From Candidatus Saelkia tenebricola (GTDB lineage Bacteria; Omnitrophota; Gorgyraeia; Kaelpiales; Kaelpiaceae), in contig JAVCDA010000010.1 in the NCBI GenBank assembly GCA_030765145.1, positions 49,087 to 113,086 on the forward strand: a stretch of DNA of 64,000 nucleotides. The letters are read 5' to 3'. Shown here piece after piece: positions 32,090 to 37,366 of this stretch; the first letter of the stretch is position 1, and every line of letters begins with the position of its first letter. The translations under genes were made by a program, and so were the position numbers. Under the pieces are notes generated by a model that was given only the letters and a program-made list of their open reading frames with translations, was not told where the DNA came from and did not search any database.

Positions 32090-34387
32090 TTAAAGCAAAT
32101 TTTTCGTACCGCTATTCTTAAAAACACCTTTATACATGAAATAGATAATCGAAGATATAATAGATATGCTCAGCAAGAAATAACAAAAAATAGATATTTT
32201 ATAAAACCAATTGCCGAATTTAAATACCACCTCGGACTCTCCGCATGGAATCATAACTGATTTATATCCGATGTTAGACTTAATTAAAGGAGCTTTTTCT
32301 CCGTTCACATAAACACTCCAGTGTGGATGATATGCATCTGCATAGTATAAAAAGCAATGCCCCAACGCACTATCAGCCGTCAATAATCTTAACCTTAGCT
32401 CATTGAATGAGAACTTTTCGATTTCAATATCCGCAAATACTCTATCGTTATAATTTTTGAAATTAATTCCTTCTTGTGAACGAATTAATTCCGGAAGCAT
32501 ATAATCAAAATCACATCCAGCATCATTTGCTGCTGCAAAAAGCATGTCTCCTGAAAAATCCTCGTTGATAAATATTTCGGCTAAAACTGAATTGTCTTCT
32601 ACTCTGTTGAGCCTATTAAAAACCTGCAGTTTCGGATAATCAATCCCGGAATATTTCCTGTAAATATTATGGACATAATTGGGGATTTTTTTCATTGTAT
32701 CCAGATAATCCTTGATTGACTTGAGCATAAAATCCGTCCTGTAGATTGAAACTGCTGAATCAGTATAGAAGAAAGATTCGATTGTTGAATAGGTAGTATA
32801 CTTTGAATATACAGACTTCTCCTCAATGGGTGCATAGAAAAGCCGCATCCTCTCATTATCAGGCCAATATTCTTGTGTATTCTGAAGCCTTTGAGAATTA
32901 AAATCATATTTATAAGGTCTAAAAAGCGCTATTGTTTCTTTTGATGCCCGCGGCATTCTGGTAACAATTAAAGAATATTTATACCCTAAGAAATCCAGCC
33001 CCATTAAAATAAGCAGCATGTTAATTAAATATCTTTTCTTGAATTTAGTTCTATACATACACCAGAACGCAATAATCCCCGCGGCTAAAATAAGATAAGG
33101 AATTTTGGATAACAGAACTCCCTCTCTTCCAGTAATAAACCAAAAATAGCCCGAGTGTAAGAGCGGTGCATTTAAGATAAAAAACCCGCTTATTGCCATC
33201 AACAACATAAGCGGAATGAAAACCACCCGCTTATCTTTCTCCATACGCTCTAAGAACAGATCAAACCCGAAACCGGCATACAATATCAGAAACAGTTTAA
33301 AAACAGTCGCAGTTAATCCAATGTGCCGGAAGTACTTTCCAAAAGGATATAAATAATAGAACAACAAAGACACAGGAGATGTTAGAGAGAAAAGAAAAAC
33401 CACTAAAGCAACCAATCCTACTAAAAAAGATATTCTTCTTCTGTTATAAAAAATTGATATTAAAACAAATGGCAAGAGTAAAAACCCCGAATATAGGTTA
33501 ATATCCCTTGAGGTGCCGTATCTTTTAAAAATCTCAGCGTATTTAGCCCAGCCGATAGAACCGCCGTATTGTAAAAAAAGATTTAAATTGGTGAAACCCG
33601 AATTATTTCTGGAGCTACTTAAATAGGAAATTGTATTATTCCCATATTTAATATAATAAAAGCTAAAAAACATTACAGTTATTAAAACTAAAAGCTTTAC
33701 TGCATTTCTAAACCTAATATTGCTTTGTAAAAAAACCTTCATCTCTTTAAAATATATACCAGCAGCCAATAAAACATATACAGAAACGATAAAAGAAACA
33801 AAAATTATACAGTATATAAAATTTCCATAAACAGTAAGTATGGAAAATAAAATGGAAAATATGAAGTATTTGAAATGTTTTGTCAATAAGCCCTTGTGGA
33901 TACAATAAATCAGAATAGGAAAAAAATAATAAATATGAAAATTCCACCAAATCTGCGGATACCAGATATTGGTTCCCAATAAAGCAAGGGCAACAAAAAT
34001 TGTAGTTTTTATATTTTTATAATACAGCGAAGAAAGCAATATCACCCCACTCAAGAAAAAAATCTCTTCAAACCAAATAGCAAAATAGAATAAATAAAGA
34101 TAATTGATATTAGCTGTAAACAATCCCAAAAAATAAAAAATCGGCGATAACAGTGTTAGCTGCGGTGTAAAATGATAATTCCCTACAAATCCTTGCGCTA
34201 CAAATGGGGTCCAAAGAGAGAGAGAACGATTTTGAACAATTTCATTAAAATAAACATATTGCTGCTGTAAATACTGAAAAGTATCGTGGGCAACAGGAAA
34301 TCTCTTTTGACAAATAATAACGACATAGATAATACTGAAACCTAATGTAATTATAAAAAATATCTTTGCTCTGGAATTTAAAAACAT
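32090..34387 (-). CDS. Very large polytopic membrane protein (765 aa) with a C-terminal extracytoplasmic domain and a terminal TM. YfhO-like or GT-C glycosyltransferase candidate.
   Basis: About 15 TM segments in the first 470 aa, a roughly 260-aa soluble domain, then a final TM (ISIFCYFLLSISIISSIIYF). Confidence 0.3.
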   Translation of the reverse strand: MFLNSRAKIFFIITLGFSIIYVVIICQKRFPVAHDTFQYLQQQYVYFNEIVQNRSLSLWTPFVAQGFVGNYHFTPQLTLLSPIFYFLGLFTANINYLYLFYFAIWFEEIFFLSGVILLSSLYYKNIKTTIFVALALLGTNIWYPQIWWNFHIYYFFPILIYCIHKGLLTKHFKYFIFSILFSILTVYGNFIYCIIFVSFIVSVYVLLAAGIYFKEMKVFLQSNIRFRNAVKLLVLITVMFFSFYYIKYGNNTISYLSSSRNNSGFTNLNLFLQYGGSIGWAKYAEIFKRYGTSRDINLYSGFLLLPFVLISIFYNRRRISFLVGLVALVVFLFSLTSPVSLLFYYLYPFGKYFRHIGLTATVFKLFLILYAGFGFDLFLERMEKDKRVVFIPLMLLMAISGFFILNAPLLHSGYFWFITGREGVLLSKIPYLILAAGIIAFWCMYRTKFKKRYLINMLLILMGLDFLGYKYSLIVTRMPRASKETIALFRPYKYDFNSQRLQNTQEYWPDNERMRLFYAPIEEKSVYSKYTTYSTIESFFYTDSAVSIYRTDFMLKSIKDYLDTMKKIPNYVHNIYRKYSGIDYPKLQVFNRLNRVEDNSVLAEIFINEDFSGDMLFAAANDAGCDFDYMLPELIRSQEGINFKNYNDRVFADIEIEKFSFNELRLRLLTADSALGHCFLYYADAYHPHWSVYVNGEKAPLIKSNIGYKSVMIPCGESEVVFKFGNWFYKISIFCYFLLSISIISSIIYFMYKGVFKNSGTKNLL

Positions 34388-35844: not shown

Positions 35845-37366
35845 ATTTGTAATTGCAATAAAAAATCTTCCTGCGCAGAAATCTTGCTAAATCAAGTTCC
35901 GGCGCAAAACCATACCATTTCTTTCTGAGTTTAAATTTTTCCAGACATCTTAGAGGAGCAAATATCAGCCTTAAGATAAACCTTACAAAACCGTTTTCTA
36001 CTCCTCCAATAGCATTTGAAGAGCTGTTCGCCAAAATACTTGTGTAAGTCAAGTTGCCTATTTTTTTTCTTTCAGAATACTTAAACCAAGGCAGCTTTCT
36101 ACCCTCAATATCATACTCATCGGATAACCAGTTAGTCCAACCCTGAAGACTCTGGGGAGGTTTTAATCCCATTTTTAAAGCTAATTTATATAATGGTGTA
36201 CCGGGAAAAGCCAGATAAGCACCAATAACCTCAAATTCGGCTCGGGGATTATCTTTTTTAAGCTGGATAAAAAGTTCGATTGTTTGATTGATTTCATCGA
36301 AAGTCTCCGTAGGAAAACCTACCATTAAAGCAAATGCCGGAATTATTCCGAATTTCTTCGCTTTTAAATTGGCTTTGATTATCTCTTCGCGAGTAATACC
36401 TTTTTTCATTAATTCTAAAATCCTGTTCGAACCTGACTCAGCTCCGAATTTTAAAGTATCAGCACCGCTTTTTTTTAACATAACAACCGTTTCATCAGGC
36501 AATTGGTTGAAAATGTCAATACGCGTTCCTGATGTATACCATTTTATCTTGAGTCCGGATTTCACTATCCCCTGACATATCGCATAAGTCCTATTTTTAT
36601 CTATATAAAACTCATCATCCCTTATCCAAATACTATCGAGATTAAATCTCCTAACCGGCTCTATAATCCTTGATAAAGATTTCTCAACAGACATAGGCCT
36701 CCATTTTCTAAGCCTCAACGTAGCACTGGAACAAAAACCGCACTCAAAAGGGCAGCCCCGGGAAGTCTGACCAATATCCAAACTACGCTTAGCCTTTTTA
36801 AGATAAAAATCTCTATGAATATATTTTTCTACATCAATTAATTCCCAAGGTACCGGCAAAAGTTCTTCTACATCAAGCAGCGGACGTTGAGGCGTAACTA
36901 CAGTCTGAATACCATCTTTAAAAACAATCCCTTGGATCTTATATAAGTCCCCATTTTCTTTGAAAGCTTCTACTAATTCAGTAAAAGCTATATCTCCTTC
37001 CCCCACACATACAACATCGACATGTTCATCCGCCAATGTCTGCTCAGGCACACTAGAAGGATGCGTCCCCCCCCAGACAATAGGGATTTTATCGCTTAAG
37101 GTTCTGACGATTTTTGCAGCTTGAATAGCAAAACTAATTTGAGTCCCGGTCATAGATGAGATCCCCACACAAATAGGCTCTTTTCGTAAACTATCAATAA
37201 GCTCATCCTTCCAGAAGTGATTCGTTCTTTGATCAATTATCTTCACTTTATAACCCCTTTTATTTAAAGGAGCTGCAATGGCTAAAACCGAATGTGGCGG
37301 CGCGATTGTAGCCCCGAAATCTACACCGGTTTTAGGATAAATTAATATTACATCTATTTCTTTCAT
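35837..37366 (-). CDS. B12-binding (class B) radical SAM enzyme, paralog.
   Basis: B12-binding domain plus TSRGCPFECGFCSS. Confidence 0.75.
   Translation of the reverse strand: MKEIDVILIYPKTGVDFGATIAPPHSVLAIAAPLNKRGYKVKIIDQRTNHFWKDELIDSLRKEPICVGISSMTGTQISFAIQAAKIVRTLSDKIPIVWGGTHPSSVPEQTLADEHVDVVCVGEGDIAFTELVEAFKENGDLYKIQGIVFKDGIQTVVTPQRPLLDVEELLPVPWELIDVEKYIHRDFYLKKAKRSLDIGQTSRGCPFECGFCSSATLRLRKWRPMSVEKSLSRIIEPVRRFNLDSIWIRDDEFYIDKNRTYAICQGIVKSGLKIKWYTSGTRIDIFNQLPDETVVMLKKSGADTLKFGAESGSNRILELMKKGITREEIIKANLKAKKFGIIPAFALMVGFPTETFDEINQTIELFIQLKKDNPRAEFEVIGAYLAFPGTPLYKLALKMGLKPPQSLQGWTNWLSDEYDIEGRKLPWFKYSERKKIGNLTYTSILANSSSNAIGGVENGFVRFILRLIFAPLRCLEKFKLRKKWYGFAPELDLARFLRRKIFYCNYKYE

Follow-up and report, generated by a model that had tools for sequence, protein, structure and literature searches.

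Three genes for class B-type radical SAM proteins (B1, B2 and B3) are constant members of a conserved, operon-like gene cassette, probably for sugar tailoring, that is carried by Omnitrophota and other uncultured bacteria and is undescribed; we found no literature on it. The genes were analyzed in a window of 64,000 nucleotides from a MAG of Candidatus Saelkia tenebricola, a member of the Omnitrophota. On balance, we favor a reading in which each of the three enzymes would perform its own radical tailoring step on a sugar that is transferred to polyprenyl phosphate and exported, with C-methylation being the likeliest reaction.

Three class B-type radical SAM proteins

A preliminary description of this DNA had proposed three such genes of roughly 490 to 510 codons, and three ORFs are indeed present, all on the minus strand like every other island gene named below: B1 (34,378 to 35,844; 488 aa, or 485 aa from an alternative NCBI start at 35,835), B2 (35,837 to 37,366; 509 aa) and B3 (41,582 to 43,093; 503 aa). 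B1 is identical (100%) to a protein of Ca. Saelkia tenebricola. Each of the three passes the Pfam gathering score for both diagnostic domains. Specifically, B1, B2 and B3 score 45.8, 70.9 and 64.4 bits for B12-binding (PF02310; cut-off 32.1) and 63.1, 78.6 and 52.7 bits for Radical_SAM (PF04055; cut-off 29.5). As predicted, the CxxxCxxC cluster occurs in all three, exactly once per protein (CPFKCNFC at residue 225 of B1, CPFECGFC at residue 205 of B2 and CPYSCSFC at residue 222 of B3). In addition, B2 carries GGTHPS at residue 99 and B3 carries GGEHVS at residue 112. All three proteins probably bind cobalamin.

Computationally, B2 is shown to have a class B fold in its AF2 model (pLDDT 88.3). 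Foldseek matches this model to TsrM, OxsB, AprD4, MgmA, CysS and TokK (E 1e-16 to 5e-21, TM 0.6-0.7), and its resemblance to the solved class B enzymes differs little from one to the next (for example, TsrM at 4.8e-21 and OxsB at 1e-20). At their N-terminal domains, B2, B3 and the family profile of B1 align with stretches that begin near the N-termini of OxsB, TokK, TsrM and CysS, and the B1 profile alignments to OxsB and TsrM begin at the N-terminal domain. The solved enzymes TsrM, OxsB, TokK, CysS and MgmA share with B1-B3 an N-terminal Rossmann-type B12-binding domain followed by a radical SAM core with CxxxCxxC, but at only 15-21% identity and with none of them standing out as the closest. 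TokK, CysS and OxsB are also longer than B1-B3. Furthermore, the solved enzymes act on tryptophan, on a nucleotide, on carbapenem or polyketide intermediates or on a protein glutamine, whereas the context of B1-B3 is an envelope-sugar cassette.

The window also encodes the B12-dependent ribonucleotide reductase NrdJ noted previously (60,540 to 62,822; NF006417 1,201.8 bits, cut-off 961). The window has 55 ORFs of 150 aa or longer; a scan of about 51 of them found no B12 uptake or synthesis genes, and a search for a cobalamin riboswitch was likewise negative.

Three old subfamilies rather than a triplication

The suggestion that the three genes represent a triplication does not survive sequence comparison. 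Pairwise identities among B1, B2 and B3 are 26%, 24% and 23% (E 1e-32 to 2e-26), making the proteins homologous yet distant, and each has nearer relatives elsewhere than the other two. B1 has orthologues at 60-73% identity plus a tier of relatives at about 50%. B2 has orthologues at 59-76% identity in more than 120 clusters and relatives at 30-34% in other phyla. B3 has orthologues at 62-68% identity in three related loci (L001, L002 and L006), relatives at 35-42%, and 3,311 representative proteins at E<=1e-30. Because each is closer to outside relatives, B1, B2 and B3 are by sequence three anciently diverged class B-type subfamilies that were recruited, rather than products of local gene expansion. 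To our knowledge, none of these subfamilies has a characterized member.

Of the three, B2 is both the best conserved and the most portable, and other clusters (L004, L007 and L088) have it in the absence of B1 and B3. This distribution argues that the steps are modular and do not form an obligate iterative series, such that the three enzymes need not share the same intermediate, as the arrangements in L004 and L007 illustrate.

A conserved ten-gene cassette

The gene order of the cassette is radical SAM, B3, split transketolase (counted as two genes), SDR, a GT2 of the polyprenyl-phosphate type, NDP-sugar epimerase/reductase, B2, B1 and a YfhO-like membrane transferase. These ten genes are colinear in the window, L001, L002/L003 and L006, four genomes in all, at 47-75% amino-acid identity. 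B1-B3 sit, as had been claimed, in a tightly packed sugar-biosynthesis island, and the conserved gene neighborhood supports the proposal that the three belong to one pathway and are not there by chance. The genes overlap or abut, as also reported, with junctions that range from a 10-nt overlap (B1 and the next gene) through overlaps of 8 nt (B2/B1, or a 1-nt gap if the NCBI start at 35,835 is used), 4 nt (epimerase/B2) and 1 nt (B3/transketolase N-terminal half) to a 1-nt gap (upstream radical SAM/B3). Eleven entries with identical longest-contig sizes recur in the homologue lists of B2 and B1, and 14 in those of B1 and the 765-aa membrane protein, which suggests that B2, B1 and this protein co-occur on many more contigs. 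The cassette is seen in MAGs only.

The first gene encodes a radical SAM protein that has no B12 domain (43,095 to 44,216; probable true start ATG 44,135, 346 aa; Radical_SAM 81.5 bits) and always lies directly upstream of B3, with orthologues at 62-68% identity. Its best NCBIfam matches, AhbD and NirJ2, are far below cut-off, and among solved structures it comes closest to BlsE, a sugar decarboxylase (E 3e-15). The transketolase is split into an N-terminal, TPP-binding half (40,761 to 41,582; Transketolase_N 133.9 bits, NF004559 267 bits; 60-70% identity across the cassette) and a C-terminal half with the pyrimidine-binding and C domains (39,823 to 40,764; Transket_pyr and Transketolase_C, NF004559 183.9 bits; 52-62%). 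The SDR gene (39,017 to 39,919; adh_short 151.5 bits) probably starts at ATG 39,802, which is preceded by GGAG and yields 261 aa, the length of its orthologues; the product is FabG- or glucose-dehydrogenase-like at scores under the cut-offs. The epimerase/reductase is an extended-SDR protein (37,363 to 38,337; 324 aa; Epimerase 163.1 bits) that is most similar, among solved structures, to GDP-L-fucose synthase, GalE and GDP-mannose 3,5-epimerase.

Two further products would link the cassette to polyprenyl-phosphate carriers and the envelope. The GT2 (38,334 to 39,011; 225 aa; Glycos_transf_2) is shown computationally to be of the polyprenyl-phosphate sugar synthase type: all four of its NCBIfam matches are such transferases (AglJ, Dol-P hexose transferase, PpgS and ArnC), albeit below cut-off, and its four best solved structures are Dol-P-Man synthase and ArnC. 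The final gene (32,090 to 34,387) encodes a 765-aa polytopic membrane protein with about 11 hydrophobic segments plus one at the C-terminus, and is kept downstream of B1 in L002 and L006. The protein itself has no Pfam match; nine of 26 homologues match YfhO (PF09586; best E 3.1e-8), and eight of the ten top fold matches of its AF2 model (pLDDT 84.9) are GT-C enzymes such as AglB, EmbB, ArnT and AftD, although these matches are weak (best E 2.8e-3). It may be a distant YfhO-like protein and probably a GT-C glycosyltransferase.

Related clusters extend this pattern. L087 has three B12-radical SAM genes beside a full GDP-heptose-type set (SIS, HAD, GHMP kinase and nucleotidyltransferase), and L088 has five in a related cluster with a GDP-heptose-type set. 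In a distant relative, P0399, one polypeptide combines two class B modules, two GT2 domains and two class I methyltransferase domains.

The surrounding island

Around the cassette, the 23-kb island supplies a second module of sugar-activation and GT2/GT-C genes and brings the number of radical SAM genes to five. Upstream of the cassette lie a PHP-domain metallohydrolase, a candidate sugar-phosphate phosphatase (44,128 to 44,937; PHP_C 25.8 bits; CehA/McbA domain 47.9 bits, below cut-off), and the fifth radical SAM gene (44,922 to 46,034), whose SPASM-type product (Radical_SAM, Fer4_12, SPASM) carries CNANCKMC at residue 31 and is 65-67% identical to its orthologues in L004 and L006. The PHP gene is likewise paired with a SPASM radical SAM gene in L004. 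These are followed by two NDP-sugar epimerase/reductase genes (46,078 to 47,010 and 47,015 to 47,950; Epimerase, RmlD_sub_bind), the latter scoring 356 bits against GDP-L-fucose synthase (cut-off 500), and by a TPP-dependent pair, E1 beta (47,952 to 49,001) and E1 alpha (49,003 to 49,980). The pair matches E1_dh (230.9 bits), Transket_pyr and Transketolase_C; E1 beta exceeds the cut-off for PDH E1 beta (NF006667, 325.5 versus 321 bits); and in L088 the pair is colinear with GT2, epimerase, kinase and aminotransferase genes at 68-75% identity. At the upstream end is a second polyprenyl-phosphate-type GT2 (49,988 to 50,692; 234 aa; Glycos_transf_2), which has NCBIfam matches only to AglJ and Dol-P hexose transferase.

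Downstream of the cassette, Pfam matches identify a GHMP sugar kinase (31,033 to 32,028) and a nucleotidyltransferase (30,341 to 31,036) for sugar activation, and a DegT-type aminotransferase (29,154 to 30,344) for amination. For this group, the best NCBIfam scores are 168 bits with HddA (cut-off 600) and 162 bits with HddC (cut-off 300). The downstream end is formed by a 600-aa ArnT/PMT_2-like GT-C candidate (27,348 to 29,150) with 12 hydrophobic segments (PMT_2 24.9 bits, just under the 26.1 cut-off).

Chemistry of the radical steps

Most characterized class B enzymes are methyltransferases, and cobalamin-mediated C-methylation is most likely the chemistry of B1-B3. GenK and GenD1 (gentamicin) and Fom3 are class B C-methyltransferases that act on sugar or CMP-linked substrates. 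These enzymes share with B1-B3 the expected function, in which a sugar-type substrate would be methylated at an unactivated sp3 carbon within a biosynthetic cluster, but they belong to actinomycete secondary metabolism. When compared with curated families (BchE, HpnJ, HpnR, PhpK, TsrM, AprD4 and others), B1-B3 reach no cut-off; with the KedN5-family methylase model, for example, which is related to GenK, GenD1 and Fom3, they score 51-90 bits (cut-off 700). Some homologues are automatically labeled 'anaerobic Mg-protoporphyrin IX monomethyl ester cyclase'.

It is possible, with a distinctly smaller probability, that the pathway is the same but at least one of B1-B3 performs non-methylating radical chemistry on the sugar. 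Candidate reactions are ring contraction or carbocycle formation, with OxsB as an established and HpnJ as a proposed example; oxidative cyclization as by BchE; C-C coupling; and AprD4-type 1,2-diol dehydration which, with SDR reduction, would give a deoxy sugar. The top curated scores, which are with the non-methylating HpnJ and BchE, count in this direction and against methylation (HpnJ at 149 bits, cut-off 577.6, and BchE at 148 bits for B1; BchE at 142 bits for B2), as does the comparison with solved sequences, in which AprD4 leads for both B1 and B3 (E 1e-14 and 3e-12, respectively; profile 2.4e-21). Similarly, SDR reductases adjoin B1-B3 as AprD3 adjoins AprD4 in apramycin C3' deoxygenation, several SDR and epimerase/reductase genes could partner a dehydratase, and the transketolase and BlsE-like radical SAM protein suggest carbon-skeleton remodeling rather than simple decoration. 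However, the best BchE, HpnJ and HpnR scores (64-149 bits) are far below their cut-offs (481-650) and near those of the methylase families PhpK (92-108 bits) and Sden_1168 (85-160 bits). Moreover, scores with the AprD4 model NF033070 are 59-72 bits (cut-off 500), and AprD4 alignments are restricted to the radical SAM core. Finally, AprD4 is not known to use cobalamin, whereas B1, B2 and B3 all exceed the Pfam B12-binding threshold.

We consider it improbable that the target is a lipid instead of the sugar, whether the polyprenyl carrier itself or some membrane lipid, by analogy with ladderane-associated enzymes and the hopanoid methylases (HpnP, HpnR), and that the sugar genes only supply a head group. 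The C-terminal tails of B2 and B3 are basic, hydrophobic and conserved (K+R 11-20 versus D+E 3-9, counted in the window proteins and three orthologues of each), a weak hint of membrane association that would suit a lipid substrate, as would a GT2 that acts on a lipid phosphate. HpnJ, HpnR and TIGR04072, a ladderane-associated family, are matched in part, which points the same way, but the scores reach only 64-149 bits against cut-offs of 360-650. Furthermore, the island and four related cassettes are devoid of squalene, hopene, isoprenoid and fatty-acid synthesis genes, and the recurrent neighbors in related loci are all NDP-sugar enzymes, GTs and GT-C-like proteins.

The preliminary description had itself allowed that BchE/HpnP-like cofactor or lipid methylases, to which RiPP maturases (ApyD, PoyC) may be added, sit in a sugar island by chance, but despite the cyclase labels and the 142.5 bits of B3 for ApyD (cut-off 750), this is very improbable given BchE scores of 141-148 bits (cut-off 481), the shared gene order, the operon-like junctions and a neighborhood free of precursor-peptide, tetrapyrrole and hopanoid genes.

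A proposed route to an exported sugar

The proposal of one tailoring step per enzyme on a sugar that is passed to a carrier and exported draws on the domains and motifs, the B2 fold, the colinear cassette, the GT2 type, the YfhO homologues, the related clusters, P0399 and, as a weak hint, the C-terminal tails of B2 and B3. In this pathway, the epimerase/reductase would first remodel an NDP-sugar, probably GDP-linked in the window via the HddA-like kinase and HddC-like nucleotidyltransferase; against the proposal, the island has no GmhA-type isomerase. The split transketolase and SDR may then extend or branch the sugar, the DPMS/ArnC-type GT2 would pass it to a polyprenyl-phosphate carrier, and the YfhO-like GT-C enzyme would attach it, outside the cytoplasm, to an acceptor in the envelope. 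B1, B2, B3 and the BlsE-like radical SAM protein would each contribute one tailoring step at an unactivated sugar carbon. The substrate of the radical steps is presumably a sugar, and the conserved polyprenyl-phosphate-type GT2 with its GT-C partner makes a lipid-linked form an equally good candidate as a nucleotide sugar.

There is precedent for radical chemistry on a lipid-attached sugar in the hopanoid side-chain enzymes HpnI and HpnJ, a GT2 and a B12-domain radical SAM enzyme that likewise share one locus. Unlike that locus, the cassette has no hopanoid genes, its GT2 is of the DPMS/ArnC type, and it terminates in a YfhO-like transferase. The DPMS/ArnC-like GT2 and YfhO-like protein are instead shared with three-component systems for glycosylation with polyprenyl-phosphate sugars (a CsbB/GtrB-type GT2, the flippase GtrA and a GT-C of the YfhO/GtrC/ArnT kind), and, as in the Arn lipid A pathway, the window has a second GT2, a PMT_2/ArnT-like protein and a DegT aminotransferase. 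In contrast to these systems, no flippase gene, including the GtrA type, is seen in the cassette or island, which counts against the proposed route, as do the weak matches behind the GT-C assignment of the 765-aa protein. Three-component systems transfer ordinary sugars (Glc, GlcNAc, Ara4N), and we know of none with radical SAM enzymes, of which the cassette has four, or a transketolase. The product of the cassette is most likely an unusual, heavily modified cell-surface sugar.

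Three predicted class B radical SAM genes

The preliminary description placed three class B radical SAM genes in the window, and minus-strand open reading frames are found exactly there, namely B1 (34378-35844, 488 aa), B2 (35837-37366, 509 aa) and B3 (41582-43093, 503 aa). Each predicted protein carries an N-terminal B12-binding Rossmann domain (Pfam PF02310; 45.8, 70.9 and 64.4 bits for B1, B2 and B3, respectively, with a gathering threshold of 32.1 bits), a radical SAM core (PF04055; 63.1, 78.6 and 52.7 bits, with a threshold of 29.5 bits) and a single CxxxCxxC [4Fe-4S] motif (residue 225, 205 and 222, respectively). 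All three cysteines of this motif are invariant within the B1 and B2 families. The start of B1 is annotated by NCBI at 35835, and the longest-ORF start is probably too long.

Approximately 20 residues ahead of the cluster motif, B1 carries the sequence R-A-H-N-W-H-C-F-G (residues ~199-207 in the 488-aa numbering). All 29 aligned B1-family sequences keep both of its His residues and the Trp, and the Arg, Ala, Asn and Phe beside these show conservation of at least 90%. This motif is a candidate signature of the B1 subfamily for substrate or cofactor binding. B2 and B3 possess conserved C-terminal tails that are both basic and hydrophobic, and B1 is without such a tail. From these tails, there is slight reason to think that B2 and B3 act on a lipid-linked substrate at the membrane.

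A B12-dependent ribonucleotide reductase (NrdJ) is indeed encoded in the window, as had been proposed, by a gene at 60540-62822 whose score of 1201.8 bits exceeds the cut-off of 961. Its presence says no more than that cobalamin is used by the organism. There are no B12 uptake or synthesis genes among the window ORFs scanned, and an Rfam search finds no cobalamin riboswitch in the window. B1 through B3 themselves may bind cobalamin and use it in catalysis, but the precedent of the radical SAM enzyme AprD4 suggests that a B12-like domain can be free of it.

Three old subfamilies rather than a triplication

The three genes had been interpreted as a triplication. Pairwise identities among B1, B2 and B3 are only 26%, 24% and 23%, and each gene has far nearer relatives in other genomes, which excludes a recent local triplication. 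B2 orthologues at 59-76% identity occur in more than 120 clusters, relatives in other phyla lie at 30-34%, and conservation within the family is striking, at a mean column identity of 70% (26 sequences). A search of genome contigs with B2, for which very specific patterns were used, returned only four close orthologue loci and otherwise relatives at 22-34% identity. For B1, orthologues are found at 60-73%, with a further tier near 50%. For B3, a single orthologue cluster lies at 63% identity; a broad family follows at 30-42%, and numbers 3311 representatives at a limit of E<=1e-30 or 45,106 at a limit of E<=0.001. On the basis of these identities, B1, B2 and B3 are three old subfamilies.

Distant relatives of B3 at 23-30% identity (P0314, P0317, P0359, P0375, P0390, P0394 and P0399) include proteins of 1800-2300 aa in which three or four B12-binding plus radical SAM modules are arranged in tandem; two of these proteins have a radical SAM/SPASM module at the N terminus as well. 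In P0399, two class B modules are joined to GT2 domains and class I methyltransferase domains, two of each. Such fusions support both cooperation among several class B enzymes and a connection to glycosyltransfer.

Comparison with characterized class B enzymes

All three proteins stay below the cut-off for every curated NCBIfam family. The highest scores are to HpnJ and BchE for B1 (149 and 148 bits), to BchE for B2 (142 bits), and to the Sden_1168 P-methyltransferase and ApyD for B3 (160.3 and 142 bits). Specifically, the model for BchE, the anaerobic Mg-protoporphyrin IX monomethyl ester cyclase (TIGR02026; equivalog cut-off 481.35), gives 148.4, 142.0 and 140.8 bits for B1, B2 and B3, and a Pfam scan of the window neighbors finds no tetrapyrrole genes near them. 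HpnJ (TIGR03471; cut-off 577.6) gives 149, 116.6 and 104.9 bits and HpnR (TIGR04367; cut-off 650) gives 63.9, 93.8 and 73.5 bits; the island and related loci hold no hopanoid genes. Among the P-methyltransferases, the Sden_1168 family (NF038361; cut-off 575) is matched best by B3, at the score stated, and PhpK (TIGR04479; cut-off 600) is matched at 92-108 bits. No phosphonate gene (PEP mutase) was seen. Scores are likewise low for KedN5 (51-90 bits against 700), ApyD (104-142 bits against 750), MgmA (TIGR04014; 64-99 bits against 360) and the AprD4 radical SAM diol dehydratase (NF033070; 59.3, 72.3 and 66.3 bits against 500), and fall far under the cut-offs for TsrM, RiPP C-methyltransferase, BzaD and ladderane-associated families.

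The solved relatives AprD4, OxsB, TokK, MgmA (9ccb), TsrM and CysS are remote in sequence, with E values of 1e-17 or worse. B2, B3 and a family profile of B1 align from the N-terminal domain onward to OxsB, TokK, TsrM or CysS, with the B1 profile aligning in this manner to OxsB and TsrM. A Foldseek search with the AlphaFold model of B2 (AF2; pLDDT 88.3), the only one of the three used in this way, recovers TsrM, OxsB, MgmA, CysS and TokK at E values of 1e-16 to 5e-21. The similarity of this model to the solved class B enzymes is much the same throughout, with TM scores of 0.6-0.7 and 15-21% identity.

On this evidence, B1 through B3 have the architecture that defines class B, and they appear to lie outside the characterized subfamilies represented by the curated models and solved structures compared.

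A conserved ten-gene cassette

B1 through B3 belong to a cassette whose order is radical SAM (~346 aa), B3, transketolase-N, transketolase-C, SDR, GT2 (~225 aa), epimerase/reductase, B2, B1 and a membrane protein of 750-800 aa. Besides the window, L001 (a 3.36-Mb contig), L002/L003 (from an Omnitrophica MAG) and L006 (from a MAG that carries the label Planctomycetia) show this colinear order, with each cassette gene sharing 47-75% amino-acid identity across these loci. L001 retains nine of the ten genes, and a carbamoyltransferase gene after B1 replaces that for the membrane protein. Furthermore, longest contigs of the same size recur between the homologue tables of B2 and B1 (11) and of B1 and the window's 765-aa membrane protein (14), which implies many more co-occurrences. 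With gene order kept in four genomes, the proposal that these genes serve one pathway, rather than being chance neighbors, is upheld. The preliminary description had also allowed that BchE/HpnP-like enzymes might sit here fortuitously. Given the colinear cassette, and BchE scores of 140.8-148.4 bits against 481.35, we regard that scenario as extremely improbable. B2 also occurs without the rest of the cassette in other arrangements (L004, L007 and L088), and thus acts as a portable module.

In the window, the likely start of the SDR gene (39017-39919) is the ATG at 39802, which has GGAG upstream and yields 261 aa as in orthologues, and that of the radical SAM gene at 43095-44216 is the ATG at 44135, which yields 346 aa. 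B1, B2 and the 765-aa membrane protein are 100% identical to proteins encoded on a contig of 214,816 bp in the MAG of Candidatus Saelkia tenebricola, a member of Omnitrophota whose genome came from Ace Lake in Antarctica. Our literature search found no published description of the cassette, and the paper naming the organism does not mention these genes.

The partner genes point to sugar chemistry. All four NCBIfam matches of the GT2 (38334-39011) are polyprenyl-phosphate sugar synthases (AglJ, Dol-P hexose transferase, PpgS and ArnC), with scores that lie below the cut-offs (118.9 bits against 325), and its four best solved structures are a Dol-P-Man synthase and three ArnC entries (E 3e-11 to 1e-9). 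The 765-aa protein (32090-34387) has ~11 hydrophobic segments, a non-membrane domain of ~250 aa and a C-terminal helix. It has no Pfam match itself, and a profile search of solved structures found nothing; nine of 26 homologues match YfhO (PF09586; best E 3.1e-8), and GT-C enzymes take eight of the top ten Foldseek places for its model, albeit weakly (E >= 2.8e-3). Its topology fits that expected of a YfhO-like protein, in which an extracytoplasmic domain accompanies a polytopic N-terminal region. The nearest solved structures to the epimerase are GDP-fucose synthase, GalE and GDP-mannose 3,5-epimerase, and the sugar decarboxylase BlsE is nearest to the radical SAM enzyme adjoining B3.

The surrounding island

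The cassette is the core of an island of 21 genes on a single strand (27348-50692), flanked by a purine-biosynthesis gene and pyruvate:ferredoxin oxidoreductase (PFOR) genes. Nearly all of its gene junctions are overlaps of 1-10 nt or gaps of 1-7 nt. GC content is 0.33-0.40 in the island and 0.31-0.39 in the rest of the window, and thus there is no compositional sign of recent horizontal transfer. A scan for promoters and terminators was uninformative (56 promoter-like sites versus 72 expected, and 19 terminator-like sites versus 14).

Two further modules complete the island: a pair composed of a SPASM radical SAM gene and a PHP gene, and a second module comprising GT2_234, E1 alpha/beta, two epimerases, an HddA-like kinase, an HddC-like nucleotidyltransferase, a DegT aminotransferase and an ArnT/PMT_2-like membrane protein. 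With the exception of the ArnT/PMT_2-like gene, the nine genes of this second module also adjoin a B2 orthologue in L088 (L088:1-21536, a Logan ERR2108714 contig) in a different order and at 43-75% identity, and most genes in the second half of that contig are common to this module. L088 carries five B12-binding radical SAM genes within 21 kb of sugar cluster, along with GT4, PMT_2, asparagine synthase, E1 alpha/beta, kinase, nucleotidyltransferase and DegT genes. L087 carries a full GDP-heptose-type gene set and three class B genes.

The E1 alpha/beta pair in the island (47952-49980) is of the pyruvate-dehydrogenase type and is without E2 or E3 genes; its E1 beta scores over the NCBIfam cut-off. 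Rather than serving central metabolism, the pair may add two carbons to a keto-sugar as a branch. A PHP-domain hydrolase (44128-44937) lies between two radical SAM genes and may take the place of a GmhB-type sugar phosphatase, which the island lacks. Over its C-terminal 47 residues, this hydrolase shows a weak match to the MbdU model, which describes a metal-binding double selenoprotein (31.8 bits; cut-off 600).

Directly upstream of the island, the PFOR genes (50832-54435) include Pfam-supported gamma (53884-54435), alpha (52350-53546) and beta (51449-52336) subunits and a likely ferredoxin-type delta subunit (50832-51017), a 61-aa cysteine-rich ORF judged on its sequence. Elsewhere in the window, an 807-aa GH57 plus DUF3536 protein (56933-59356) adjoins a methylenetetrahydrofolate reductase-like gene (56064-56936). 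A type IV pilus or type II secretion set (7960-14280) includes a T2SS-F platform protein (7960-9183), a PilB/GspE ATPase (9186-11006) and a secretin (12898-14280), beside which lie ORFs of 460-560 aa with no Pfam match. Two neighboring proteins of ~480 aa (394-3293), possibly paralogues, have C-terminal TPR repeats and N-terminal regions with no Pfam match. The window encodes no tRNAs.

Proposed pathway and implications

We infer the substrate, the stage of action and the reaction type of B1 through B3 as follows. Most likely, an NDP-sugar would be remodelled and passed to a polyprenyl-phosphate carrier by the GT2. Four radical SAM enzymes would tailor that sugar, possibly together with the transketolase and SDR, and the YfhO-like enzyme would then move the tailored sugar onto an envelope acceptor. 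By analogy, the most probable reaction is C-methylation at unactivated carbons because most characterized class B enzymes are methylases. Ring contraction, cyclization and an AprD4-type dehydration are real alternatives. It is also possible that the transketolase is merely a source of sedoheptulose-7-phosphate for a GDP-heptose route, but the core cassettes of L001 and L002 have no kinase or nucleotidyltransferase genes within 10 kb.

In its fullest form, this pathway would be a route not recognized before: a transketolase and as many as four radical SAM enzymes, of which three belong to class B, would rebuild a sugar's carbon skeleton, maybe on a polyprenyl-phosphate carrier. From it would come a new envelope sugar, multiply C-alkylated, branched, chain-extended or carbocyclic, which a YfhO-like GT-C enzyme would install outside the cell and which would be widespread in Omnitrophota and neighboring uncultured phyla. 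We advance this complete scheme only tentatively, and consider it rather unlikely to hold in every part. To our knowledge, no class B radical SAM enzyme acts on a sugar carried by polyprenyl phosphate.

Class B enzymes are among the largest groups of radical SAM enzymes, few members have known functions, and those characterized come nearly all from antibiotic, cofactor or lipid pathways. B1 through B3 are new, uncharacterized subfamilies of this known superfamily in a conserved and unusual context. They form three well-defined orthologue groups with strong conservation between genomes (60-75% identity), and the genes around them suggest that these groups tailor cell-envelope sugars in uncultured phyla. 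Since likely partner enzymes are encoded alongside, candidate substrates could be produced enzymatically. Even if the three proteins are ordinary sugar C-methylases, their assignment would provide a useful annotation for thousands of proteins mislabelled 'radical SAM / BchE / YgiQ'. Should they act instead on a carrier-linked sugar, by C-methylating it or by rearranging its skeleton, class B enzymes would gain a new substrate class, and Omnitrophota, whose cell-surface biology is largely unknown, would be predicted to bear unknown surface sugars.
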